Below, one piece after another: positions 9,669-63,974 of a stretch of 64,000 nt of DNA (the stretch's first letter is position 1; the number at the start of each line of letters is the position of its first letter). Made by a program: the position numbers and the translations under genes. The notes below the pieces were generated by a model. The model saw only the letters and a list, made by a program, of their open reading frames with translations. It was not told the origin of the DNA and made no database searches. Origin of the DNA: an uncultured Gammaproteobacteria bacterium (lineage in GTDB: Bacteria; Patescibacteriota; Microgenomatia; Daviesbacterales; UBA10151); the NCBI GenBank assembly GCA_964392925.1, contig CAYMRP010000003.1, positions 50,786 through 114,785 of the forward strand. The letters run 5' to 3'.

Positions 9669-11885
9669 ATGGTAAGAAAAGCCTTCGTAACTGCCGCTTT
9701 AATAGTTTCTGTATTAACACTTCTTTTTCAGATTACTTCAAGTGGGGATTTGCAAGCCGCAGAAAATTCAACCGGAGATAAGAACCGAGCTCCTGAATTT
9801 GTTAGCAATCAGATATTGATTAGATTATCTGAAGATACTGCTAGTGTAATAAGAACTAATATCCAAAAAGATCAAGCAGGCAGACTAGACTTTAAAAAAG
9901 CTGATGTAGTGAGCGGAGTGGAGGGACTTGATCAGTTTGTCCGTGCTAATGGGGCTGTGGAGATGAGACCTTCCTTCTCAAAAGGAGCAGACAGAGCAAA
10001 AAGCGAAGCTGGGGAGAAATCTAAAGCGAAGTTGAAACGGTGGTATGTTCTAACCCTAAATAAAGAAGAGAAAAAAGTTAATTCTGCTTCTGAGGAATTT
10101 AAGACACTCAAAGCTCAGGCGGACATTATAAGGAAAATTAAAGGGGTCGAAGCTGTTGAGCTGAACGGCATTTTAGAAACAGCTTATACTCCAAATGATA
10201 CTTACTATTCCAATCAGTATGCTCCTGCAAAAATCAAGGCTGATTTAGCTTGGGATTTAACGGAGGGGACATCAAGTGCTGTAGTGGCAGTTTTGGATAC
10301 TGGTATTTTGGCTGCTCATGAAGATTTAAGCGGCAAAGTAATTGCGGCTGAGAATTTTACCTCCTCAGTAAATGGAACTAATGATGTCAATGGACATGGA
10401 ACACATGTGGCTGGGATTGTAGCTGCTAATAGTAATAATTCTTTGGGTGTCGCTGGTATAAGTTCGAAAGTATCTCTTCTGAATGCAAAAGTTTTACGTG
10501 ATGATGGAGCTGGAGAGATGGATGACGTTTCGAATGGGATAGAATGGTCGGCAGATAATGGGGCAAATGTTATTAATATGAGCTTTGCTGGTAACTATGA
10601 TGAGTGTAATAGCCTAATAGAGGACTCTCTAGATTATGCGTGGAGCGAAGGAGTTCTGCTTGTGGCGGCAGGTGGGAATGGGGCTGCGAATGACATATAT
10701 ATGCCAGCGCTGTGCGATCATGTGATTTCGGTGGTAAATACTAATAGTAGTGATGCTAAATCATCAACTTCGAATTATCACGCGAGCATGACACTAGCTG
10801 CGCCAGGAGATAATTTGTATTCAACATATAATAATACTGGAGGGTTTGGTTACTATAAATATAGTTCAGGTACCTCTATGGCTTCGCCGGTAGTAGCTGG
10901 AGTTGCCGCGCTTGTTAAGTCTGCGAACTCATACTTAAATAATCAGGAAATGTATGACATATTAACCTCAACTGCTGATCCGATTAGTGGAACGGGGACT
11001 AATTGGCAATATGGAAGAGTTGATGCGCAAAAAGCATTAGCACCATCGACCAGGAACCACTATACGACAACTTATTGTTTGAGCGGTCCTGATCCTAGAA
11101 TTCATTTAAGGTGGACTAGTGTTCCAAATGCTGTCGGATACAGTGTTTATCGAACTCCAGCAGGAGGCTCTGAATCCTATTTTGGAGCGACTTCTGGGAT
11201 TGCTATAAACGATGATACTGTCTATTCAGGTCAGCAGTATTCTTATCGGGTTGTTGCTCAGTTTGCAGACAGCAGTACTTTATCCGGAGTTGGTCATTCG
11301 ATAACCTCGGTGACTTGCGGTTACCCTAATCTCAACAGCAGCACCTCAGCTTATTGTGTTGGCGGAGGTACAACTTCCAGAATTCATCTACAATGGGATG
11401 CTGTAGCTGATGCATCATATTACAATATATACAGAACTCCAGCAGGAGGCTCTGAATCCTATTTTGGAGCGACTTCTGGGATTGCTGTAAATGATGAAAC
11501 AGTCTATCCAGGTCAGCAATATAATTATCGAATAGTTGCGGTGTTTCCAGATAGTACAACTCTTGCCGGGGTGCCTGAGACTCTAACAGCAGATGTTTGT
11601 GTTGAGCCGAATTTTAACAGCAGCACCTCAGCTTATTGTGTTGGCGGAGGTGCAACCTCTAGAATTCATCTACAATGGGACGCTGTTCCTCATACATCTA
11701 TGTATAAGCTTTACAGAACTGTATCCGGATCTGAATCTTTGTTTGGTGTAACATCCGGTGTGGCTGTTAATGATGACACAGTAACGGGAGCTCAGAATTA
11801 TTCATACCGGGTAGAAGCCTGGTTCCCAGACAACAGCATACTCAATGGTGATCCGGGTTCGTACACTGCAGTAAGCTGCCCTTAA
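9669..11885 (+). CDS. Secreted subtilisin-like serine protease (peptidase S8) with N-terminal propeptide and three C-terminal Fn3-like tandem repeats
   Basis: Signal peptide. Catalytic triad blocks VAVLDTGI (Asp), HGTHVAGIV (His), SGTSMASP (Ser). Three repeats of about 94 aa each (…RIHLQWDAV…YRTPAGGSESYFGATSGIAVND…). Confidence 0.8.
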   Translation: MVRKAFVTAALIVSVLTLLFQITSSGDLQAAENSTGDKNRAPEFVSNQILIRLSEDTASVIRTNIQKDQAGRLDFKKADVVSGVEGLDQFVRANGAVEMRPSFSKGADRAKSEAGEKSKAKLKRWYVLTLNKEEKKVNSASEEFKTLKAQADIIRKIKGVEAVELNGILETAYTPNDTYYSNQYAPAKIKADLAWDLTEGTSSAVVAVLDTGILAAHEDLSGKVIAAENFTSSVNGTNDVNGHGTHVAGIVAANSNNSLGVAGISSKVSLLNAKVLRDDGAGEMDDVSNGIEWSADNGANVINMSFAGNYDECNSLIEDSLDYAWSEGVLLVAAGGNGAANDIYMPALCDHVISVVNTNSSDAKSSTSNYHASMTLAAPGDNLYSTYNNTGGFGYYKYSSGTSMASPVVAGVAALVKSANSYLNNQEMYDILTSTADPISGTGTNWQYGRVDAQKALAPSTRNHYTTTYCLSGPDPRIHLRWTSVPNAVGYSVYRTPAGGSESYFGATSGIAINDDTVYSGQQYSYRVVAQFADSSTLSGVGHSITSVTCGYPNLNSSTSAYCVGGGTTSRIHLQWDAVADASYYNIYRTPAGGSESYFGATSGIAVNDETVYPGQQYNYRIVAVFPDSTTLAGVPETLTADVCVEPNFNSSTSAYCVGGGATSRIHLQWDAVPHTSMYKLYRTVSGSESLFGVTSGVAVNDDTVTGAQNYSYRVEAWFPDNSILNGDPGSYTAVSCP
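11060..11880 (+). repeat. Three tandem ~282-bp near-identical repeats within the S8 protease gene
   Basis: Exact 50-bp identity (actccagcaggaggctctgaatcctattttggagcgacttctgggattgct) at 11154 and 11436. aacagcagcacctcagcttattgtgttggcggagg at 11334 and 11614. Confidence 0.8.
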
Positions 11886-11917
11886 TTCTCCCTTTATTTT
11901 TCGGCTATAATTAATCT

Positions 11918-12130
11918 GTGAAGCTTTTTGAGAAATACGAGAGATCAGTAACTAAAACAGTAACCTACAGAATCTTAATTGTTATTTCAACATTTATTGT
12001 GACCTATTTTTTAACCGGAGAAGTCAGATTAAGTATTGAGATTACAGCTGTGGCGAATATTATTAATACTTTCTTATACTTTTTGCATGAAAGAATATGG
12101 AATAGAATCGGCTGGGGGAGAACTAAATAA
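11918..12130 (+). CDS. DUF2061-family small membrane protein
   Basis: YRILIVISTFIVTYFLTG…FLHERIWNRIGWG matches the DUF2061 signature (two TM segments, H-E-R-x-W). Confidence 0.5.
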   Translation: MKLFEKYERSVTKTVTYRILIVISTFIVTYFLTGEVRLSIEITAVANIINTFLYFLHERIWNRIGWGRTK

Positions 12131-12132
12131 TT

Positions 12133-12690
12133 ATGCAGAGCGTATTTTTTCAGACTGCAGAGGAATTTCGGAAATGGTTAGAAGAGAATTATGATAAGAA
12201 GTCCGAAATTTGGGTAAAGTTTAATAAAAAGGCTTCCGGAAAAGGCGGAATGGATCGCAAAGAAGCGCTTGATGAAGTGCTATGTTTTGGTTGGATTGAC
12301 GGAATTGTTAAGAGCTTAGACGAAGAGTCTTTTATTCAAAGATATACTCCTCGGACCAAGAAAAGTATGTGGTCGAAGATTAATACAGCTAATATTGAGA
12401 GACTAATTAAAGAAGGGAAAATGAAAGAATCGGGATTGAGGGAGGTTGAGCTTGCACAGGCGGATGGAAGATGGGAGGCGGCTTATGATTCACCAACAAA
12501 TTCAAAAGTTCCCGAGGACTTTATGGAACAATTAAAGAAGAATAAAAAAGCAGAAGTATTTTTTGGAAGTTTAAATAAAACAAGTTTATTCATGATTGCT
12601 TATAGACTGCAAACTGCTAAAACTAGAGAGACCCGAGAGAAACGGACTAAGGATATTATTGATAAACTTGAGGTCGGCATAAAACTTTAA
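12133..12690 (+). CDS. YdeI/OmpD-associated family protein (bacteriocin-protection-like)
   Basis: 185 aa. FQTAEEFRKWLEENYDKKSEIWVKF…GWIDGI…RYTPRTKKSMWSKIN pattern is characteristic of the YdeI family. Confidence 0.5.
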   Translation: MQSVFFQTAEEFRKWLEENYDKKSEIWVKFNKKASGKGGMDRKEALDEVLCFGWIDGIVKSLDEESFIQRYTPRTKKSMWSKINTANIERLIKEGKMKESGLREVELAQADGRWEAAYDSPTNSKVPEDFMEQLKKNKKAEVFFGSLNKTSLFMIAYRLQTAKTRETREKRTKDIIDKLEVGIKL

Positions 12691-46188: not shown

Positions 46189-46737
46189 ATGCAAAAAGTA
46201 AATCCTTGGAAAAAGTTATCTTCAAGAGCTGTTTATAAGAATGATTGGTTTTCTGTTCGCGAAGATGAAGTAGAAAAGCCGGGGAATAGGACTGGGGTTT
46301 ATGGAGTGGTTGAGACAGATCCGTCTGTTTTTATTGTGGCTATTAACGATCAAGAAGAAGTTTATTTAGTCGGGCTTTTTAGATATCCGGTTTCCCAGTA
46401 TAGTTTAGAAATTCCGGCTGGGAGTTCTGATGGAGAAGATCTACTTGAAGCCGCAAAGAGAGAATTGCTTGAGGAAGCCGGACTTAAAGCACTAAGGTGG
46501 GAGAAAATTGGGAGTTTCATACCGCTTAACGGAATAGCCAATGAAATAAGTAATATTTTTATGGCTAGGGATTTGGAGGAAACAGGCAGCGAACTCGATC
46601 CTAATGAAGGAATTATGGAAGTCAGAAAAGTGCCTTTTGAAAGAGTGTTTGATTTGGTAAGATCTGGGGAGATATCAGATGGGCAAACAATTTCAGCATT
46701 AACGTTGGCTAAGATCCATTTAGGAAAGTGGTCATGA
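46189..46737 (+). CDS. NUDIX hydrolase (ADP-ribose pyrophosphatase-like)
   Basis: Nudix box GSSDGEDLLEAAKRELLEEAGL. Confidence 0.75.
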   Translation: MQKVNPWKKLSSRAVYKNDWFSVREDEVEKPGNRTGVYGVVETDPSVFIVAINDQEEVYLVGLFRYPVSQYSLEIPAGSSDGEDLLEAAKRELLEEAGLKALRWEKIGSFIPLNGIANEISNIFMARDLEETGSELDPNEGIMEVRKVPFERVFDLVRSGEISDGQTISALTLAKIHLGKWS

Positions 46738-46776: not shown

Positions 46777-47973
46777 ATGATTCTATATGAATTTGAAGGA
46801 AAAAAGTTATTAATAGATGCCGGAATTGCAGTTCCCTCCTCGCAACTTATTAGCTCACTAGATGAGGAAGTTTCTTTACAATATCCGCTTGTTTTGAAGG
46901 CGCAAGTTTTATCAGGAAAAAGGGCGGATGCCGGTGGAATATTATTTGCTGAAAATGAAGAAGAGTATAGAAATGGGATTAAGAGGCTCTTGGACTCAGT
47001 TATAAATAAAGAAAAAGTAGAACAGGTTTTAGTTGAGGAGAAGGCAGAAATTGAGAAAGAGTATTATGTTTCAATTTCTTATAACACAGAAACCCGCGGA
47101 GCTGTTTTAACTTTATCTGAATCTGGGGGAACCGGTATCGAGGACAGAGAAGCAAATACGTATAAAGTATCAAGTGTTAAGTATCAAGCCGGCGAGGAAG
47201 CAGTTAAGTTTGATGAACTGGGCAAATTAGAGGGAGTAGATGGAGAGGTTATTAATGATTTAATTAAAATGTTTTTTGATCAGGATTGTTCGCTTTTGGA
47301 AGTTAATCCATTAGTTAAAACCAGATCAGGGGAGTGGATGGCTTTGGACGCAAAAGTAAAATTAGATGACTTTGCAAAACCGAGACACAAGGATGAGTGG
47401 GATTATTCTCCGAGATCAGCTCCAGGTCATACGCCTACCAGAGGCGAAATTGAAGCTAAAAAAATAGATGAAGGTGATTATAGAGGGACTGCTGGTTCTT
47501 CATATTTTGATATTGAGGGTGGTGATATCGCGGTTTTGTCATCCGGAGGGGGTGTTTCTTTGACAGCTTTGGATTCTCTAATTAATTACGGAGGAAAGCC
47601 AGCTAATTTTACTGAATATTCTGGGAATCCACCAAAAGAGAAGGTAGCAAAGCTAACTAAAGTTGTCCTAGATAAGCCTAATATTCATGGCCTTTGGGTT
47701 ATTGGGACTGTTGTTGCGAACTTTACTGATATTTACGAGACGCTATCGGGATTTATTGAAGGATTAAAAGAAACGGAAAAGTTACTGGGCAGGAAATTTG
47801 ATTTTCCAATTGTTATCCGCAGAGGAGGTCCTAGAGTAGAGGAGGCTTATGAGATGTTGAAGAACGTAAAAGAGTTTGATTTTCATTTGCAGGCTGGGGA
47901 GACTTCTATAGCGCAATCGGCGAAGACTATGGCAGAGCTTGCTAAGGAGTATGAATTAAGAATTAAGGGCTAA
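46777..47973 (+). CDS. ATP-grasp subunit, succinyl-CoA synthetase beta / ATP-citrate lyase small-subunit (AclB/CcsA)-like
   Basis: MILYEFEGKKLLIDAGIAVP N-terminus (SucC-like). 398 aa. Followed by an alpha-like subunit and a citrate-synthase-like gene. Confidence 0.7.
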   Translation: MILYEFEGKKLLIDAGIAVPSSQLISSLDEEVSLQYPLVLKAQVLSGKRADAGGILFAENEEEYRNGIKRLLDSVINKEKVEQVLVEEKAEIEKEYYVSISYNTETRGAVLTLSESGGTGIEDREANTYKVSSVKYQAGEEAVKFDELGKLEGVDGEVINDLIKMFFDQDCSLLEVNPLVKTRSGEWMALDAKVKLDDFAKPRHKDEWDYSPRSAPGHTPTRGEIEAKKIDEGDYRGTAGSSYFDIEGGDIAVLSSGGGVSLTALDSLINYGGKPANFTEYSGNPPKEKVAKLTKVVLDKPNIHGLWVIGTVVANFTDIYETLSGFIEGLKETEKLLGRKFDFPIVIRRGGPRVEEAYEMLKNVKEFDFHLQAGETSIAQSAKTMAELAKEYELRIKG

Positions 47974-47978
47974 GTATT

Positions 47979-48881
47979 ATGGGAAATAGATTATTAAAAA
48001 AGGATGCTAAATTAATAGGACAAGGGTTAACGGGGACTGAGGGGGCGAGGGCTTTGCCTAGGATGACTTCTTACGGCACAAAAATCGTGGCCGGAGTGAC
48101 ACCTGGCAAAGGTGGGCAGGAAGTGGAAGGGGTGCCGATATTTAACTCAGTTAAAGAGGCTGTTGAAGCAGTTGGGCCAGTCGATGGTACGGTTCAATTT
48201 GTCCCTCCGTTATTTGTTAAAGGAGCTGTTAAAGAAGCGATTGAGGCCGGATTAAAATTTATTTTAATCAGTGCGGAGAAAGTCCCAACTTCTGATGAGG
48301 CGTATATGTATGAACTAGCTGAGAATAATGGGGCGAGTATTATTGGTCCAAATTCGGTGGGACTTTTAAGTACTCATAATAGAATTAGATTAGGGTTAAT
48401 CGGGGGTTCTGATCCAGAGAAAGTATTTATGCCGGGGGAAATTGCGATTGTCTCTAAATCCGGATCAATGACGGCAGAGATTGGGCTTCATTTAAAAAAT
48501 AATGGTTTAGGAACATCATGGGCTGTTGGGATAGGCGGGGATATTGTGGAAGGAACTGATTTTGCGGATTTTTTACTTGAACTTGAGGATGATGCAAATA
48601 CGAAAGCCTCGGTCATTTTTGGAGAATTAGGGGGAACATATGAAGAGAAAGTGGGGGATTTAGTTAAAGCAGGCAAAATTACAAAACCTGTTGTGGCTTT
48701 GATCGCTGGAGACTTCACTATGAAATTACCTAATGAGGTTCAGTTTGGTCATGCAGGTGCTATTATTGAAGGAGAGAGAGGACTTCCTGACTATAAGCGG
48801 AAATTCTTACGAGAAGCGGGAGTGAAAGTGGCAAACTCGATTGATGAAATTGCGGAGCTTTTGAAGCAGTCTTTAAAATAA
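47979..48881 (+). CDS. CoA-binding subunit, succinyl-CoA synthetase alpha / AclA N-terminal (CcsB)-like, with phospho-His motif
   Basis: CoA-binding Rossmann (GLTGTEG…) and the conserved catalytic-His loop VQFGHAGAIIEG. Confidence 0.75.
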   Translation: MGNRLLKKDAKLIGQGLTGTEGARALPRMTSYGTKIVAGVTPGKGGQEVEGVPIFNSVKEAVEAVGPVDGTVQFVPPLFVKGAVKEAIEAGLKFILISAEKVPTSDEAYMYELAENNGASIIGPNSVGLLSTHNRIRLGLIGGSDPEKVFMPGEIAIVSKSGSMTAEIGLHLKNNGLGTSWAVGIGGDIVEGTDFADFLLELEDDANTKASVIFGELGGTYEEKVGDLVKAGKITKPVVALIAGDFTMKLPNEVQFGHAGAIIEGERGLPDYKRKFLREAGVKVANSIDEIAELLKQSLK

Positions 48882-48883
48882 AA

Positions 48884-49561
48884 ATGGCTATTACAATTAC
48901 ACATGTTGATGATGATGAAACTAAGCCGGCGCTTTTTGAGGAGCAAGATCTTTTGGAGTTAGCCCAGAAGATTTCATTTGCCGAATTGATTTTTGAGATG
49001 TTGACTGAGAGAAAGCCTTCTGAGGCAGAAGCTAAGCTGCTTAATTTAATTTTGAATTTATCAGCCGATCATGGACCTAATGCCCCGTCAGCAGTGGCGA
49101 CAATTGCAGCTACTAAAGAAGGCAAAACAATGGGTGAATCGGTTGGGGAAGGTATGGCGCAGATTGGTGATCGGCATGGCGGAGCAGGAGGGCCTTTGAT
49201 GGAATTGATGTACAGGATCAAGAACCAAGGGACAAGTATTAAGGGAGAAGTTGAAGATGTCTTAAAAGAGGGAAAAAGGATTCCGGGGATGGGTCATCGA
49301 GTCTATAAAGATATTGATCCGAGGGCGCAGTTGATTATGAAAACGGCAGTTGATAATGGAGTGGGTGAGGAATTTGTGAAGCTGGTGAATGAAATAAGAG
49401 ATGAGATTGAGAGACAGTCTGGTAAGAGCTTGCCGGTTAATATAGATGGAGCAATTGCTGCTGTTTTTTGCGGATTTGGCTTAAAGCCGGAATTTGGGAT
49501 TGCAGTATTCATAGTGGCGAGAGCTCCTGGGCTATGTGCTCATTTTATTAATAATTCCTAA
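48884..49561 (+). CDS. Citrate-synthase-like domain protein (citryl-CoA lyase / ACL C-terminal-like), apparently C-terminally short
   Basis: LNLSADHGPNAPSA…GPLMEL…GHRVYKDIDPRA…ARAPGLCAH are hallmark citrate synthase blocks. The protein ends 6 residues after the AH block. Confidence 0.65.
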   Translation: MAITITHVDDDETKPALFEEQDLLELAQKISFAELIFEMLTERKPSEAEAKLLNLILNLSADHGPNAPSAVATIAATKEGKTMGESVGEGMAQIGDRHGGAGGPLMELMYRIKNQGTSIKGEVEDVLKEGKRIPGMGHRVYKDIDPRAQLIMKTAVDNGVGEEFVKLVNEIRDEIERQSGKSLPVNIDGAIAAVFCGFGLKPEFGIAVFIVARAPGLCAHFINNS

Positions 49562-58173: not shown

Positions 58174-58965
58174 ATGGAGTTACTAATATATATTTTAGTT
58201 TTTACATTTTTAGGCAGTATTGCTTCATTGGTAGGAGGGATTTTTTTGCTGTCAAAAAAAGAACTGGTTGGTAAGATTTCGCATTATTTGTTTTCATTTG
58301 CGGCTGGAGTTTTATTGGGTACGGCTTTTTTTGATCTGCTTCCCGAGGCATTTGCTGAGATTGAACATTTAGCTGAAGAAGGAATTATTGTAGAGACAAA
58401 TATATTTCTTTGGACATTTTTAGGAATTATTGGCTTCTTCTTTTTAGTTAGATTTTTGCACTGGTTTCATCATCATGACGATCATTTTAAAGATGAGCCA
58501 AAACAGACAGTGTCGCTTATTGTAGTCGGAGATACTGTACATAATTTTATAGATGGAATGATAATTGCGGCTTCATTTTTTGTAAGTATTCCGCTGGGTA
58601 TTCTTACAGCTATTGCGGTGGCAATTCATGAGATACCACAAGAGATAGGAGATTTTGCAATTTTAATTAAGAGAGGTCTGCCTAGGAAAAAAATCATTCA
58701 GATTAATTTGATAAGTGCGGCGGCAGCAATGGTAGGAGCGATGCTGGTGTTTATTTTAGGAGAATCAGTCAAGGCTATGCTGCCGATGTTTTTGGCACTG
58801 ACTGCAGGATTCTTTATCTACATAGCGACGGCCGATTTAATCCCTGAGATTCATAAAGAAGATAACCAAAAGGTGGCTTTCATGGAAGCTTTACTACTCG
58901 TAATTGGAGCGCTTACTGTTTATGGTTTGGCAATAATTTTAGAAAGCGCGAATCTTCATGGATAG
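58174..58965 (+). CDS. ZIP-family divalent metal transporter (ZupT-like)
   Basis: HNFIDGMIIAASF and HEIPQEIGDFAIL metal-binding TM motifs. Confidence 0.75.
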   Translation: MELLIYILVFTFLGSIASLVGGIFLLSKKELVGKISHYLFSFAAGVLLGTAFFDLLPEAFAEIEHLAEEGIIVETNIFLWTFLGIIGFFFLVRFLHWFHHHDDHFKDEPKQTVSLIVVGDTVHNFIDGMIIAASFFVSIPLGILTAIAVAIHEIPQEIGDFAILIKRGLPRKKIIQINLISAAAAMVGAMLVFILGESVKAMLPMFLALTAGFFIYIATADLIPEIHKEDNQKVAFMEALLLVIGALTVYGLAIILESANLHG

Positions 58966-59512
58966 TAAAAAAAATTTAAATTCTGATAATCAGATAATAT
59001 CGGCGGTTGATAGTGCAGGTAACTTTATTCGTTATATTTCGAAGGAAGATGGACATACAGGTGAAGGCATTCATCATTTAGCAATTACAGTTTTTATTTT
59101 TAATTCAAAAGGGGAGCTACTTTTACAAAAAAGGAAACATAAGGTATTTGATAATTTTTGGGATAACACAGCGTCAACTCATCAGCTGCATTTGGAAAAT
59201 GGCCATGACGAGAGTGACAAGGAGGCAACTTTACGAACACTGAAAAGAGAGTATGGGATAGAGAATGTTGAACTTGAGAATTTGGGAGGATTTAATTATT
59301 TCGAGAAAATTGGTGGGCTTTGTGAGAATGAGTTTTGCAAATTGTTGATTGGAATTTATGATGGTGAAGTAAATTTAAATCCTGAGGTTGGATATTCGTA
59401 TAAGTGGATTTCAAAAAAAGATTTTATGAGAGAGCTTGAGGAGATACCTGGGGAATATACACCATGGTGTAAAGCAGCAGTAAAGATTCTTCATGATAAA
59501 GGTATTTTGTAA
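58958..59512 (+). CDS. Isopentenyl-diphosphate isomerase type 1-like NUDIX protein, Cys67-to-Ser variant (paralog A)
   Basis: Aligns to E. coli Idi: His ligands kept (IHHLAIT, STH). ENE (Glu114/116), Tyr and Trp161 equivalents present. WTNSVCGHP is WDNTASTHQ here. Confidence 0.55.
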   Translation: MDSKKNLNSDNQIISAVDSAGNFIRYISKEDGHTGEGIHHLAITVFIFNSKGELLLQKRKHKVFDNFWDNTASTHQLHLENGHDESDKEATLRTLKREYGIENVELENLGGFNYFEKIGGLCENEFCKLLIGIYDGEVNLNPEVGYSYKWISKKDFMRELEEIPGEYTPWCKAAVKILHDKGIL

Positions 59513-60051
59513 TGGATCTTGAAGAGGAGTTGGTTGATATTGTTGATGAGCGAAATATTGTTATCGGGCAATCTTCCAGAAGAGAAGCGCATGCTAGAGG
59601 GCATATTCACCGGGCGCTATCCGTATTAGTTTTAAATTCTAAAGGCGAGATATTACTTCAAAAGAGATCTGCTAATAAATCGGTCCATCCCATGTCTTGG
59701 GATTTATCAACCTCAGAGCATGTGTTGAGTGGAGAGAGTTATGAAGATGCGGGATTTAGATCTGTAAAAGAAGAACTCGGTGTTGAGGCAGTTGTAACAA
59801 AAGCTACGGAAATAACTTTGCAGAAAAGGAAATATCAGGTTAAGGGGGAGACGGTTTTTGAGAATGAAATTGTTCTGATGTTAAGGGCGATTCATGACGG
59901 TCCTTTTGAAATAGATCCAGAAGAGGTTAATGAAGTTAAATTTTTTAAAGTGGAAGAAATTGAGCAGATGGTAAAAGGCGGTGAAGACTTCACTACTTGG
60001 TTTTTGGACGAATGGCTGAATGTAAAAAAAGTAGTTAGTTCAATCACATAG
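59512..60051 (+). CDS. IDI-1-like NUDIX protein, also Cys-to-Ser (paralog B)
   Basis: HRALSVLVLNSKGEILLQKR…WDLSTSEHV…ENEIV. Same substitution pattern as paralog A. 1-nt overlap (TAATG). Confidence 0.5.
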   Translation: MDLEEELVDIVDERNIVIGQSSRREAHARGHIHRALSVLVLNSKGEILLQKRSANKSVHPMSWDLSTSEHVLSGESYEDAGFRSVKEELGVEAVVTKATEITLQKRKYQVKGETVFENEIVLMLRAIHDGPFEIDPEEVNEVKFFKVEEIEQMVKGGEDFTTWFLDEWLNVKKVVSSIT

Positions 60052-60300
60052 CTCAATCCGGCTGACGGGAAACGTTAACTCCGGATAAGTGGCTGATTTG
60101 GCGATGCTAGTTGGTATCGATCGAGTAACCTCCAGGTTCCGTTCCGGTAGTTGATCGGGGCGAAGTAAAAATGAGGCTAATTTTGGTACTTCGAATCCTC
60201 TAATTGTAACTTCTCCTGAATCTGAGACGGTAAAGCGGCGGTGTCTCTTTACTATTCTTGATTGAGAAGGAGAGGTGTCGATTTCAGGACTTATTGCCAT
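60040..60300 (-). CDS. Possible small ORF (86 aa) translationally coupled to the MVD-like gene; coding status uncertain
   Basis: Its ATG overlaps the MVD-like TGA (ATGA). No domain. The region is locally GC-elevated and may instead be a structured 3' UTR. Confidence 0.2.
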   Translation of the reverse strand: MAISPEIDTSPSQSRIVKRHRRFTVSDSGEVTIRGFEVPKLASFLLRPDQLPERNLEVTRSIPTSIAKSATYPELTFPVSRIELCD

Positions 60301-61277
60301 CAGAAAAGATGTGTCTTGGACAATCTTACTCCGTCTCCTGGATAATTTACAATAATGTTTTTGACTTCCGAGAGCTCCTTTAAGTTTGCTTTTAAACTTT
60401 CAACATGGTTCTTTTCAACAATTAAATGGACATCCTGGCCGGTGTTGACTGTGAAATAAACAGGAATTCCCTCTTCGCGCCATTTTTTGCAGAGCTTCAT
60501 TAATAAAAGTGAATTGGGCATAAGGTAGATTAAGGCTGGTTTTTGGGTAATATAAATCGAGTGGAGTTCGAGAGCTTCTGATTCAATTAGTTCGCCGAAT
60601 TCTTTAAAGTTTTTTTCTGTTATTAATTTCTTAAGTAGTTCGTTTTTAGCTTTCATTCCTTCTACTCTAATGTTCATGAAAGGGGAGGTGTTGGCTCCTT
60701 CATGGGCATCTGAAGTTGAGATTTCTTTTCTGCCTTCTGAAACAACTGCTACGACATCTGCGATCTCCCAATGGTCTTTTTCAAATATAGTTTTAGCATA
60801 GGAGGTTTCAGAAGTGTCGCCATCTAACCATTCTACAATTCCTGCAGGAATTGAGCGGCAGGCTGATCCGGAGCCTTGTCTGGCAAGTATTGATAATTCT
60901 GATTCAGATAATTCAAGACCAGCAGCATTTGATCCGGCTACTGTTAGGGCTGCAAATCCTGAAGCGGAAGAAGAGAGGCCGGTTCCGGTGGGGAAAGAAT
61001 TTTTTGAAACTACTTTAGCGAAAGTATTTATACCGGCAATTTTTCTAATTCTGTCTAAATGTTTTATAACTTTTGCGGCTTCTTTTTCTCTTTTTTCGTC
61101 ATTTATAGTTATATCATCGGCGGTTAAGTTTTCGTCAAATTCTACAGTGGTGGTAGTTAAAAGATTTGATAAGGACATGGAGATGCTGCCGTTCATCGGC
61201 AGTCTTAAGGTTTCGTCTTTGCGGCCCCAATATTTGGTGAAGGCAATATTGGATGGAGCTATAGCTGTTGATTTCAT
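60300..61277 (-). CDS. Diphosphomevalonate decarboxylase-family protein (MVD/PMD/M3K-like) with non-canonical catalytic-Asp region
   Basis: N-terminal APSNIAFTKYWGRKD, and GSGSACRS. Where MVDs have (Y)FT(M)DAGPN, this protein has VYFTVNTGQDV (Asp->Asn in my alignment). Confidence 0.65.
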   Translation of the reverse strand: MKSTAIAPSNIAFTKYWGRKDETLRLPMNGSISMSLSNLLTTTTVEFDENLTADDITINDEKREKEAAKVIKHLDRIRKIAGINTFAKVVSKNSFPTGTGLSSSASGFAALTVAGSNAAGLELSESELSILARQGSGSACRSIPAGIVEWLDGDTSETSYAKTIFEKDHWEIADVVAVVSEGRKEISTSDAHEGANTSPFMNIRVEGMKAKNELLKKLITEKNFKEFGELIESEALELHSIYITQKPALIYLMPNSLLLMKLCKKWREEGIPVYFTVNTGQDVHLIVEKNHVESLKANLKELSEVKNIIVNYPGDGVRLSKTHLF

Positions 61278-61771
61278 ATTAGGAATCCGTATTCTTTAAG
61301 AGTTATTTTAGATGATTCTGAGAGATCTTCAAAGACTTCTTTTAATTCTTCCCGAGTAAAGAATCTTAGTTCGTCAGTTTCTTCGGGATTAAATTTAAAA
61401 GGGCCATTTGACTGAAGAGTGTAAAGCTTAGTCATTGTTTTGTGAGCAGGATCATCTATTATCATTCTTTTGAGAAAGGCAGGTTTGGCGCTGAGTCTTA
61501 ACTCTTCAAGGATTTCTCTTTCTGCGGCTTCGTCATAGGTTTCTTCTTCACCGACATGTCCGCCTACTGCATTCGACCATTTTCCTGGGTTACTATCTTT
61601 TTTGACACTTCTTTTTTGAAGCATCACTTGTCCTTTCTCGTTAAATACTAAAACTGAAATAGTCCTATGAAGCAGTTTCTTGGTATGGGCTTCCTTTCTG
61701 GGCATGTAATTCATGACGTAATCGTTTTCGTCAACAACAATTACTAATTCTTCGGGATCTGTGTAATTCAT
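61274..61771 (-). CDS. NUDIX hydrolase, IDI-like (paralog C; Cys position is Gly)
   Basis: HRTISVLVFNEKGQVMLQKR…WSNAVGGHVGEEETYDEAAEREILEE is a NUDIX box embedded in an IDI-like N-terminal layout. ATGA overlap with the MVD-like gene. Confidence 0.5.
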   Translation of the reverse strand: MNYTDPEELVIVVDENDYVMNYMPRKEAHTKKLLHRTISVLVFNEKGQVMLQKRSVKKDSNPGKWSNAVGGHVGEEETYDEAAEREILEELRLSAKPAFLKRMIIDDPAHKTMTKLYTLQSNGPFKFNPEETDELRFFTREELKEVFEDLSESSKITLKEYGFLI

Positions 61772-62754
61772 TGCTCAAGTCTAACTCCATCTGTATTTAC
61801 TTCAACTTTTAAAACTTGGCCGCCGGCGTTTTGAATTGCTTGCTGAACTGCCTTGATTCTATTTTCGGGAGCAAGAGCAATCATACAATCGCCGCCGCCG
61901 GCACCCGATAATTTGGCACCAAAAGCTCCGGCATTTCGAACTGCATTGATAATTGAGGAGAGTTTATTGGTGGAAACTCCCAATTGTTCAAGCAGTGTTT
62001 GATTCGAATTCATTAATTCGCCGAGTTTTTTCAGATCATTATGAGCAAAAGCCGCTTTTGCTTCTTCAACAATTTCTTCCATGTTGTTATAAATTTCGTT
62101 TAACTCTGCTTGTTTATTCTCGAAGCGGGCTTTGACTTCTTTGACTATTGTGGCGGTATCGGCTTTGACTCCGGTGTAGCCAACAATGAGTGGTAGATGG
62201 CTAATAGCTAATGGTTGAATGGTTTTGCCGCCGGCTACAAAGTATAAAGTTTCGCCGTATATTGCGGCTGCTAAATCAAAGCCAGATCCTAATCCCTGGA
62301 CATCCAATACCGTTTGATAAGCAAGGTCAAAAATTTCTTTCTGAGTTAGTTCTGGTTTAAATATTTCTGCCAATGCTTTGACCGTACAAACTGCGGATGC
62401 AGAAGAGGAGCCAAAGCCAAAAGTAGACTTAAATTGGGCAACAGTTTCTAATTGAATTCCAGCATGTGGGGGGATAGCAGCGGCGTATTTTTCAAAGAAA
62501 TTTTTAGTTGCGAATTCGACAAATTTTGCACCTTTTGGAATTTCGTCTTCTCCGAGATGAGACATCAGTTTATTGTAATTTTTAATATCAACGTCGGGGG
62601 CATTTAATTTAAAAACTGGTTCATCGTTATAGGAAGCGGTTAGAGAGAGCCTTTGATTTACGGAAGTTACAATACATGGCTTACCGTAAACAACGGCATG
62701 TTCACCAAAAAGCATTAATTTTCCGGGAGCTGAAACTGTAATCTTTTTGTCCAT
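61768..62754 (-). CDS. GHMP kinase, mevalonate-kinase-like paralog (candidate phosphomevalonate kinase or variant)
   Basis: SAPGKLMLFGEHAVVYGKP (MVK motif 1), GFGSSSA (motif 2), GSGFDLAAA (catalytic Asp), KLSGAGGGDC (motif 3). Not ERG8-type. Confidence 0.6.
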   Translation of the reverse strand: MDKKITVSAPGKLMLFGEHAVVYGKPCIVTSVNQRLSLTASYNDEPVFKLNAPDVDIKNYNKLMSHLGEDEIPKGAKFVEFATKNFFEKYAAAIPPHAGIQLETVAQFKSTFGFGSSSASAVCTVKALAEIFKPELTQKEIFDLAYQTVLDVQGLGSGFDLAAAIYGETLYFVAGGKTIQPLAISHLPLIVGYTGVKADTATIVKEVKARFENKQAELNEIYNNMEEIVEEAKAAFAHNDLKKLGELMNSNQTLLEQLGVSTNKLSSIINAVRNAGAFGAKLSGAGGGDCMIALAPENRIKAVQQAIQNAGGQVLKVEVNTDGVRLEQ

Positions 62755-62755
62755 A

Positions 62756-63700
62756 TTAAATAATTCCTGTTTCTGAAATCTGAACTGAATAGTACTTTAA
62801 ATTATTTTCCTTGGCAAATTCTATAAGTATATTTATGTTTTTATGAAAGGCTAAAATCATTCCTGATCCTTTTTTAATTCCTCCAGCTCCAGTTATTTTA
62901 GCGGCTCCTTTTAAGTTCTCGATTTTTGTAATGATATCACGGGTTGTTTCACTAACGACTCCCAAACTTTCTAAATTAGATTCCGATTGTTTAATAATTT
63001 TAAATAATTGAGACTCAGTATTGTTTAATAATGCGTCTTTTAATTGATGTGCTAGAGCTTCCTGACTGTTGATAATTTTATTAAATAAATGTTTGTTTTG
63101 TTTAGCAAAATTTGAAACATGTTCCACCATGTCAGATGTTTTTTCAAGAGGCTTGCCTGAATCGATCAATAGAAATTTTAAAGCAGATTTAGTAGAGATT
63201 CTAGAATAGTCCTCACCTTTTCTAAACCAAATAAGTCCACCATAGACAATTATAGTGTTATCTCCGCCAGAGGGATTTCCTTGAAATATTTTTTCACCCT
63301 CATAAACTAATTGATTTAGTGTTTCGAGGTCACAATTAACATTCAAAAATTTTAGCAGAGCTGAGGTGAAGACTGCGCAAAAAGCGGCGGAGGATCCAAG
63401 GCCTGAACCGATTGGAAGATCATTGTTAAATTTGATTGTGTAGTTTGGAATTGAGGAAAGAGCGAATTTTTTGGTGATTAATTTTTCTAGATTGATTTGG
63501 AATTTTTCGATTGCATCATCATGCTGAATTATGCCAAGGATTTGTTTTTTTTCTGATGAATAGATTCTACCTGTAAATCTTAAATTTATTGCAGCGAGGA
63601 TAGCAGGTTTGCCATAAACGACGCTGTGTTCGCCGATCAGGTGAATTTTTCCGGGGGCTGAAACTTTAATAATATTAGAGGGGTTTGAATTTGATTCCAT
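62756..63700 (-). CDS. Mevalonate kinase-like GHMP kinase
   Basis: KVSAPGKIHLIGEHSVVYGKP, GSGLGSSAA, SGGDNTI (catalytic Asp), KITGAGG. Start taken at MESNSNPSNII. The track ORF extends to 63745 and would overlap the next gene by 71 nt. Confidence 0.7.
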   Translation of the reverse strand: MESNSNPSNIIKVSAPGKIHLIGEHSVVYGKPAILAAINLRFTGRIYSSEKKQILGIIQHDDAIEKFQINLEKLITKKFALSSIPNYTIKFNNDLPIGSGLGSSAAFCAVFTSALLKFLNVNCDLETLNQLVYEGEKIFQGNPSGGDNTIIVYGGLIWFRKGEDYSRISTKSALKFLLIDSGKPLEKTSDMVEHVSNFAKQNKHLFNKIINSQEALAHQLKDALLNNTESQLFKIIKQSESNLESLGVVSETTRDIITKIENLKGAAKITGAGGIKKGSGMILAFHKNINILIEFAKENNLKYYSVQISETGII

Positions 63701-63974
63701 ATTCAATGATGTCGGCGGCCTGAGGTTTGCGGGATCTTCTGACAACTGAAATAACTTTAAGTCCGATTTTTAAATCTGATTCTTCGCAGTCAATTATTTG
63801 AGAGGGTACTTTAGTGCCGTTTTCAAGTTCAATTATACCGGCAAAATATGGTGCTTGATACTCAAAACCAGAGGGAGCGGTGAAGATTTTTGTCCATACT
63901 AAAAGCTTACCTTTTTGAGAAAGGTTTTGATTTAATTTCTTAGTATCCCGCCAATGTTTTACTGGACTGCTCAT
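63675..63974 (-). CDS. DUF35 OB-fold protein (thiolase/HMG-CoA-synthase scaffold family), lacking the N-terminal Zn-ribbon
   Basis: GKLLVWTKIFTAPSGFEYQAPYFAGIIELENGTKVPSQIIDCEESDLKIGLKVISVV aligns closely to archaeal DUF35 OB folds (…VYSFTVVHRAPPGFEPPYIVALVELEEGPRVMTNIVDCDPEEVKIGMEVEVVF). Confidence 0.65.
   Translation of the reverse strand: MSSPVKHWRDTKKLNQNLSQKGKLLVWTKIFTAPSGFEYQAPYFAGIIELENGTKVPSQIIDCEESDLKIGLKVISVVRRSRKPQAADIIEYGIKFKPL

Follow-up and report, generated by a model that had tools for sequence, protein, structure and literature searches.

A 64,000-nucleotide (nt) stretch of contig CAYMRP010000003.1, hereafter called the window and always meant at its full length, encodes on its plus strand two adjacent proteins, A and B, which resemble type 1 isopentenyl-diphosphate isomerase (IDI) but lack the catalytic cysteine of that enzyme. 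On balance, we favor the reading that A is a working isomerase of isopentenyl diphosphate (IPP) and dimethylallyl diphosphate (DMAPP), i.e., a natural Cys-less, Asp-type variant of type 1 IDI, on the grounds of its conserved core, its neighborhood of mevalonate (MVA) and prenyltransferase genes, and fusions of such domains to polyprenyl and undecaprenyl synthases. A broader proposal is put forward tentatively: A would belong to a large, unrecognized class of type 1 IDI without the catalytic Cys, in which Asp or Glu at position 63 (occasionally 67) serves as the base. This class would be the standard and often sole DMAPP-forming enzyme of Daviesbacteria and other members of the candidate phyla radiation (CPR), and it may be an ancestral link between YfcD-like Nudix hydrolases and the Cys-type IDI of Escherichia coli and eukaryotes. 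Residue positions without any other label follow E. coli IDI, whose reference sequence was matched against HMMER alignments over residues 4 to 164. The open reading frames (ORFs) of both proteins agree exactly with a previous sequence-only reading of this DNA and lie with their key motifs as follows:

58958..59512, plus strand: protein A, 184 amino acids (aa), IDI-1 fold without Cys67, candidate Asp-type IPP:DMAPP isomerase
59159..59182, plus strand: A motif W68-D69-N-T-A-S73-T74-H75 (E. coli W62-T63-N-S-V-C67-G68-H69), codons read
59321..59332, plus strand: A motif C122-E123-N124-E125 (E. coli V113-E114-N115-E116), containing the metal/acid Glu pair
59465..59467, plus strand: A residue W170 (E. 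coli Trp161), present in 80/80 orthologues
59512..60051, plus strand: protein B, 179 aa, the other IDI-like paralogue without the Cys, on a hydrolase-like branch
59698..59721, plus strand: B motif W63-D64-L-S-T-S68-E69-H70, codons read, with S68 at the Cys67 position
59860..59868, plus strand: B residues E117-N118-E119 (E. coli Glu114-Asn115-Glu116); E119 invariant, E117 in 93% and otherwise Asp

In canonical type 1 IDI, a Glu protonates the double bond of IPP and a conserved Cys takes the C2 proton, and both Zn2+ and Mg2+ are required (PMC3509576); the motifs TNTCCSHPL and WGEHEXDY define the family (PMC3547716). Alignment to E. coli IDI revealed that His25, His32, His69, Glu87, Glu114, Glu116, and Trp161 are kept in both A and B. 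The His3Glu2 metal site of A comprises H33, H40, H75, E123, and E125, with E98 (Glu87) as the Mg2+/diphosphate ligand, and the metal-site residues and Glu87 were invariant or nearly so in the families of both proteins. Glu116 and Tyr104 are represented in A by E125 and Y114. Trp161, the residue credited with carbocation stabilization, corresponds to W170 in A and W163 in B, each invariant in its own family. Among A orthologues from 80 species genomes, Glu114, Glu116, Tyr104, Trp161, and Cys113 were each found in 80/80 sequences, and His25, His32, and Glu87 were invariant across 120 A homologues. Position 69 was occupied by His in 74, by Asp in 5, and by Asn in 1 of the 80 orthologues, all ligand-conservative changes; the exchanges to Asp (L033, L045, L066, L078, and L086) and to Asn (L067) hint at an altered metal preference.

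The sequence-only reading had listed the His ligands, the Glu pair, the Tyr, and the C-terminal Trp as conserved in both proteins. This description held with the exception of Tyr104 in B, where an invariant R106 is aligned and Y108 lies close by. The replacement of Cys67 by Ser was confirmed by alignment for A (S73 in WDNTASTHQ) and B (S68 in WDLSTSEHV), and neither protein has a Cys at position 66. The full set of metal and acid residues was under strict purifying selection in more than 80 species, which supports the earlier view of selected, functional variants rather than decayed genes.

The IDI-1 equivalog model was the best family match for A, B, and a third IDI-like protein encoded nearby (C) alike, with all three scoring under its cutoff. 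The best PDB sequence match of A was E. coli IDI (~1e-12, phmmer). AlphaFold2 (AF2) models of A and B had predicted local distance difference test (pLDDT) values of 93.5 and 93.3, respectively, and their top Foldseek matches were E. coli and human IDI-1 with TM-scores of 0.75 to 0.84, followed by YfcD and DR0079. The models thus place both proteins in the type 1 IDI fold. Hence, the alignment of both proteins to type 1 IDI claimed before was sound as regards best family match, fold, and the ~1e-12 match to E. coli IDI, although both stay below the curated cutoffs. Chance likeness is no issue, given dozens to hundreds of conserved homologues per protein. The previous reading had also called A and B tandem paralogs: the genes are indeed adjacent and coupled, but A and B share only 32% identity versus 37% for B and C (24% for A and C), and they appear to be old paralogues rather than a recent tandem duplicate. 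No named non-IDI Nudix subfamily claims either protein, an outcome that had been considered as a possible refutation. Against the YfcD model NF011922 (cutoff 152 bits), A scored 17 and B 77.3 bits, and against the Methanosarcina Nudix model NF041653 (cutoff 300 bits), 38.3 and 53.4 bits, respectively. Some Cys67-less relatives scored above the IDI equivalog cutoff (P0301, 135 bits; P0306, 141 bits; P0272, 132 bits), and no curated family sets Cys-less proteins apart from IDI.

The identical Cys-to-Ser change in two paralogues had been taken as a sign of selection for Ser. This was not borne out, as position 67 varies among orthologues: Ser (94) and Ala (26) were found in the 120 A homologues, Ala (42), Ser (29), Ile (4), and Asp (4) in the 80 species genomes, and Ser, Ala, or Gly in B-type proteins of other genomes, which follow the pattern W-D-x-x-x-(S/A/G)-E-H. 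Such variation indicates that no function is carried at position 67 of A-type proteins, and Ser67 as a selected nucleophile or base was rejected in view of Ala, Ile, or Gly in many orthologues. Judged from these alignments, the residue actually selected is probably Asp or Glu at position 63 (D69 in A and D64 in B). Position 63 was Asp in 76 and Cys in 4 of the 80 A orthologues; Asp was invariant in the family of B, and Asp or Glu occurred in that of A.

The relation between the two positions was examined in a search with A against 1.84 billion cluster representatives, whose best 150 matches yielded 128 sequences (50%-cluster representatives) keeping Glu114, Glu116, Tyr104, and Trp161. Cys67 without Asp/Glu63 was present in 70 of them and Asp/Glu63 without Cys67 in 55, while one had both and two had neither. 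Thr63 was the single column that separated Cys67 proteins from Cys-less ones. Representatives without Cys66 and Cys67 had Asp at position 63 in 40/42 cases versus 0/71 for canonical ones, which have Ser, Thr, or Ala there. Asn64, found in 70/71 canonical representatives, was lost together with Cys67, and the [ST]-N-x-x-C of canonical IDI becomes D-x-x-x-(A/S) in the A/B group. In a neighbor-joining tree, A fell into a large Asp63 clade. A second Asp/Glu63 clade without Cys67, about half of whose members keep a Cys at position 66, was nested among canonical "CC" IDIs and retained Arg83 and Lys55, indicating that the exchange occurred more than once. At least one member of this second clade came from "Candidatus Moranbacteria," and the Cys-less Asp-type trait seems common in CPR.

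A reciprocal swap, W-C-F-T-A-D-T-H (Cys63/Asp67), was observed in four Daviesbacteria orthologues (L017, L035, L053, and L074) that are not each other's nearest relatives. From this swap, a carboxylate seems to be required in the 63/67 region and to be supplied by either position. In the Nudix fold, the position right behind the conserved Trp of this strand (Asn33 in MTH1) faces the inside of the substrate pocket, and by analogy a pocket location is plausible for position 63. We regard both the 63/67 pattern and the linkage to the pathway, described below, as real with high confidence.

The genes surrounding A and B within the window are as follows:

58174..58965, plus strand: ZIP-family divalent-metal transporter gene (Pfam Zip, 8.5e-43), first gene of the ZIP-A-B operon
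60300..61277, minus strand: diphosphomevalonate decarboxylase (MDD) gene, last of the MVA operon and convergent on B (TIGR01240, 256.4 bits, cutoff 171.35; Pfam MVD-like_N and MDD_C)
61274..61771, minus strand: protein C, 165 aa, hydrolase-type member of the IDI-like Nudix group with its Nudix box intact, encoded within the MVA operon
61768..62754, minus strand: GHMP kinase, probably phosphomevalonate kinase (PMK) (TIGR00549, 223.6 bits; TIGR01220, 115.5 bits, below cutoff)
62756..63745, minus strand: mevalonate kinase (MK)-like GHMP kinase (TIGR00549, 194.4 bits, cutoff 163.05)
63675..63974, minus strand: DUF35/OB-fold protein of the archaeal-type thiolase/HMG-CoA synthase set (Pfam OB_ChsH2_C)

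The ATG of A overlaps the end of the ZIP gene by 8 nt, as read from ORFs and codons, and the ATG of B overlaps the stop codon of A by 1 nt (TAATG), so that the ZIP gene, A, and B are translationally coupled. The plus-strand ZIP-A-B genes and the minus-strand MVA operon are convergent, i.e., arranged tail-to-tail. The kinase at 61768..62754 passes the mevalonate kinase model and scores above the other kinase on phosphomevalonate kinase models. The MVA operon runs past the window end; on a 94%-related contig (L001), DUF35 is followed by thiolase, HMG-CoA synthase, and HMG-CoA reductase and then by a trans-polyprenyl synthase and a cis-prenyltransferase (undecaprenyl diphosphate synthase [UPPS]).

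A contig profile search with the family alignment of A yielded 80 species loci, whose context was read within ±10 kb. Most carry the labels Daviesbacteria, Microgenomates, or Patescibacteria, and a complete chromosome (CP066688.1; 820,589 bp) is among them. By the names given to such loci and to homologues, the DNA comes from a CPR bacterium of the Microgenomates/Daviesbacteria type. Many records of metagenome-assembled genomes among L007 to L086 are titled "uncultured Gammaproteobacteria bacterium" and a few Chloroflexota, Acidobacteriota, or archaeon, which look like placeholder or wrong labels. MVA and/or polyprenyl/UPP synthase genes were located no more than 10 kb from A in 40 of the 44 loci of at least 15 kb. 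In two loci (L079 and L080), the genes follow the one-strand order HMG-CoA reductase, HMG-CoA synthase, thiolase, DUF35, MK, PMK, MDD, A, UPPS, and a short contig (L081) shows the PMK-MDD-A-UPPS end of the same order; in these three loci, A fills the slot expected for IDI. In 39 of the 75 loci with enough upstream sequence, the A orthologue came directly after a ZIP gene, and L003 and L005 likewise have ZIP-A, without B. The coupling of ZIP and A may be a metal-supply pairing or just conserved gene order; according to work cited in PMC3509576, type 1 IDI needs Zn2+. Of the 44 long loci, 10 had B in the vicinity of A and 4 had C, and neither was found in 30, which leaves A as the sole IDI-like gene there. 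A is thus a conserved, pathway-linked core member, and B is accessory.

A-type Cys-less domains were also found fused to polyprenyl synthase (P0250, P0252, and P0248) and to UPPS (P0243), and these fusions fit an enzyme supplying the allylic primer. Among IDI-like domains in general, fusions comprised P0243 with undecaprenyl diphosphate synthase and P0248, P0250, P0252, P0266, P0268, P0315, and P0342 with polyprenyl synthetase; the fused domains mostly lack Cys67, and P0266 is canonical.

If A acts as an Asp-type isomerase, the protonation step of E. coli IDI would be retained, with E125/Y114 delivering a proton to C4 of IPP, and W170 would stabilize the resulting tertiary cation. Its C2 proton would then be taken by the D69 carboxylate (position 63), which would replace the Cys67 thiolate, possibly with assistance of the invariant C122. 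The gene stands in one operon with a ZIP metal importer, meets the IPP-producing MVA operon tail-to-tail, and lies close to the genes of prenyltransferases, which need DMAPP. Of the options named in the sequence-only reading, an IDI with altered acid/base chemistry describes A best.

Several observations weigh against this reading. A scored 77.1 bits against NCBIfam NF002995 (cutoff 127) and 71.5 bits against TIGR02150 (cutoff 105.8), and, like B, it lacks Arg83, one of the IDI diphosphate ligands. The association between positions 63 and 67 was counted without correction for phylogeny. In alignments, YfcD and DR0079, both Nudix hydrolases, have Asp63 as well, as does B, and this Asp may be an ancestral structural residue instead of a catalytic base. 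Residues 63 and 67 would be ~13 Å apart if the segment were a regular strand; the AF2 model of A has a break between strands 67-69 and 72-74. Finally, DMAPP could come from a different enzyme encoded outside the 64-kb window.

Among the alternatives, the one that survives best, although we consider it unlikely, is that A and/or B are Nudix phosphohydrolases which take the terminal phosphate off IPP, DMAPP, or short prenyl diphosphates and thereby tune the C5 pool. Such hydrolysis has precedents in the Methanosarcina mazei IPP/DMAPP Nudix hydrolase and in plant NUDX1/NUDX3. Both A and B belong to the Nudix superfamily by Pfam, AtNUDX1 was among their lower Foldseek matches, and IDI domains are repeatedly paired or fused with C-like Nudix domains, all of which, together with the Asp63 shared with YfcD and DR0079, would suit a hydrolase. 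For A, this is opposed by its Nudix box (T...E-x7-R-T-L-K-R-E-Y-G-I), which has only 1/3 of the catalytic Glu residues (R-T-L-K-R-E) and is degenerate as in true IDIs. Moreover, Glu116, Tyr104, and Trp161, invariant in A, serve alkene protonation and not phosphoanhydride hydrolysis and are lost in hydrolase-type relatives such as C. Scores fall far short of the cutoffs of both the YfcD model and the Methanosarcina Nudix model, and fusion to prenyl-diphosphate synthases suits a supplier of DMAPP better than a destroyer of the substrates of these enzymes.

The hydrolase explanation applies better to B. Its sequence suggests that A and B are not equivalent: the neighbor-joining tree places B together with C and further Nudix proteins of the hydrolase-like kind, whereas A falls into the IDI-like clade. 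B scored 95.6 bits against NF002995 (cutoff 127) and 71.6 bits against TIGR02150 (cutoff 105.8), and among PDB sequences DR0079 was its best match, with IDI about equal (~1e-12 to E. coli IDI). D64, E69, and H70 were invariant in the B-family alignment. The B Nudix box (E...E-x7-R-S-V-K-E-E-L-G-V) keeps E87/E88, i.e., 2/3 of the catalytic Glu residues, in addition to the extra invariant Glu69 at the first Nudix-box position. These features and the lack of Tyr104 favor hydrolysis, and B-type proteins elsewhere often have Tyr at His25. B is therefore predicted to depend on metal and to act on the C5 diphosphates that A is proposed to use; a phosphohydrolase or a modulator seems somewhat more likely than another isomerase.

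The third IDI-like Nudix protein, C (61274 to 61771), has Gly at position 67, as previously noted. It scored 84 bits against the IDI-1 equivalog (cutoff 127), 76.8 bits against NF011922 (cutoff 152), and 51.0 bits against NF041653 (cutoff 300), and its best PDB match was YfcD. Its Nudix box (G...E-x7-R-E-I-L-E-E-L-R-L) is complete, with invariant E86, E89, and E90, and thus canonical; H110 and T112 take the places of Glu114 and Glu116, and Trp161 is absent. The idea that C is the real IDI, given its location in the MVA operon, was rejected because of its full Nudix box, the absence of Glu114, Glu116, and Trp161, and its absence from most A-bearing loci. By its sequence features, C would be a hydrolase-type Nudix partner of the decarboxylase and not an isomerase. 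Its gene lies between those of the PMK-like kinase and the decarboxylase, and in L003 (GCA_016182045.1; positions 10686 to 12194) it is fused to the latter in a single 502-aa NUDIX+MVD protein, which suggests that a hydrolase step is linked to the formation of IPP. Fusions of a canonical or Cys-less IDI domain with a C-like Nudix hydrolase domain, in either order, were observed in P0255, P0256, P0277, P0302, and P0333, and tandem pairs of two hydrolase-like domains in P0270, P0367, and P0389. Based on the fusions of C-like domains to MDD and IDI, the combination of IDI and an IDI-like Nudix hydrolase seems to be a recurrent module.

An explanation to which we give distinctly less weight than to the hydrolase is that A and B are noncatalytic or otherwise specialized, i.e., pseudoenzymes, isoprenoid-diphosphate sensors, or isomerases/hydratases whose substrate would be a different allylic compound or a monophosphate, for instance isopentenyl phosphate (IP), with DMAPP made by an enzyme encoded elsewhere. 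This would account for the scores below curated IDI cutoffs and for the loss of Arg83 in both proteins, and the search for another IDI in this genome covered the 64-kb window. Unexplained isopentenyl phosphate kinase (IPK) genes syntenic with "IDI-I" have also been described in CPR (Hoshino & Gaucher, PMC6107057). However, the strict purifying selection mentioned above is at odds with a noncatalytic role. A monophosphate substrate, as a consequence of the loss of Arg83 and Lys55, was not supported either: K60, H61, and K62 of A sit near the lost Lys55 position, and the nested Asp/Glu63 clade keeps both Arg83 and Lys55. In addition, the decarboxylase passes the diphosphomevalonate decarboxylase model, so that IPP and not IP is the expected product, and neither the window nor L001 showed an IPK gene.

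The sequence-only reading had pointed out that the source of DMAPP would become a real question if the genome had no type 2 IDI. No fni-like ORF was found in the 64-kb window by ORF inspection, Pfam searches of unassigned ORFs, and three type 2 motifs, nor was a canonical IDI-1 Cys motif. In 1.29 Mb of A loci, the lone match to all three fni motifs was a Gly-rich secreted protein. The question is largely answered by the context of A. IDI-I was reported to be universal and IDI-II sparse in CPR; the CPR IDI-I was not monophyletic, and a missing Cys was not mentioned (Hoshino & Gaucher, PMC6107057). The presence of A, B, and C types in this DNA agrees with such non-monophyly. No report on a Cys-less IDI-1 or on the biochemistry of a CPR IDI was found in the searchable literature, from which the Cys-less Asp-type IDI, apparently common in CPR, is apparently absent.

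Least probable, by a small step, is a relocated thiol, in which A would be an active carbocation-type enzyme with the invariant Cys122 (position 113), possibly activated by Asp69, as base in place of Cys67: Cys113 was found in 120/120 homologues and 80/80 orthologues of A and in 23/42 representatives without Cys66 and Cys67 versus 2/71 canonical ones, but other Cys67-less Asp63 clades have Ala or Ser at this position, so that Cys113 is not general, and in the AF2 model C122 and the Glu pair lie on strand 121-133, where C122 alternates with E123 and E125 and should face the opposite side of the sheet.

Further features of the window concern its wider organization. GC skew was strongly positive, at 0.11 to 0.38, over the first 60 kb, which carries mostly plus-strand genes, and fell to ~0.07 over 60 to 64 kb with the minus-strand MVA operon. 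Three adjacent plus-strand genes at 46777 to 49561 resemble a split ATP-citrate lyase (ATP-grasp plus citrate-binding, CoA-binding/CoA-ligase, and citrate synthase C-terminal domain); located ~10 kb from the MVA cluster, they could supply acetyl-CoA in a small-genome CPR bacterium. At 46189 to 46737 (plus strand), a fourth NUDIX protein of 182 aa is encoded, which is unrelated to the IDI-like group and has an ADP-ribose-pyrophosphatase-like sequence.

The Cys67/Glu116 pair is the textbook mechanism of type 1 IDI, and the Cys motif is used to recognize the enzyme. If the proposed swap of a thiolate for a carboxylate is true of a widespread natural class, with the rest of the site and the linkage to MVA and prenyltransferase genes kept, it would represent a second chemical solution in one scaffold, and the natural variants would offer a clean natural experiment on the proton-abstraction step. 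Pathway reconstructions in CPR call any of these Nudix paralogues "IDI-I"; here, only A is credible as an isomerase, and C is of the hydrolase type. The exchange also bears on the origin of IDI from Nudix hydrolases.

In comparison with known systems, the FMN (flavin mononucleotide)-dependent type 2 IDI (Fni) catalyzes the same reaction and is the usual IDI of bacterial MVA operons, but has an unrelated fold. In work from the Hemmi laboratory, a Methanosarcina Nudix hydrolase reportedly prefers IPP and DMAPP. It is a Nudix enzyme of C5 isoprenoid diphosphates, to which C, and perhaps B, could plausibly correspond in function; with 38, 53, and 51 bits against the cutoff of 300 for NF041653, none of A, B, and C is a member of its family. 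YfcD of E. coli (PDB 2FKB) and DR0079 of Deinococcus radiodurans (PDB 2O5F), the latter a (d)CDP/(d)CTP pyrophosphatase, have complete Nudix boxes. They belong to the same Nudix-fold subfamily as the proteins described here and share Asp at position 63, and B and C resemble them and IDI to about the same degree, with DR0079 best for B and YfcD for C. In contrast to A and B, which keep Glu114, Glu116, and Trp161, YfcD has no Glu-x-Glu pair where H110 and T112 of C align. Type 1 IDI itself (E. coli Idi and human IDI1; PDB 1NFS, 1HX3, and 2I6K) shares with A and B the fold, the His3Glu2 site, Glu87, Glu116, and Trp161, as well as the adjoining MVA and prenyltransferase genes as pathway context, and with A alone Tyr104 and the degenerate Nudix box. 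Unlike type 1 IDI, both A and B have no Cys at position 67, nor one at 66, have lost Arg83, and score under the curated cutoffs, and A has a 5-residue insertion after His69 and an invariant Cys that precedes Glu114.

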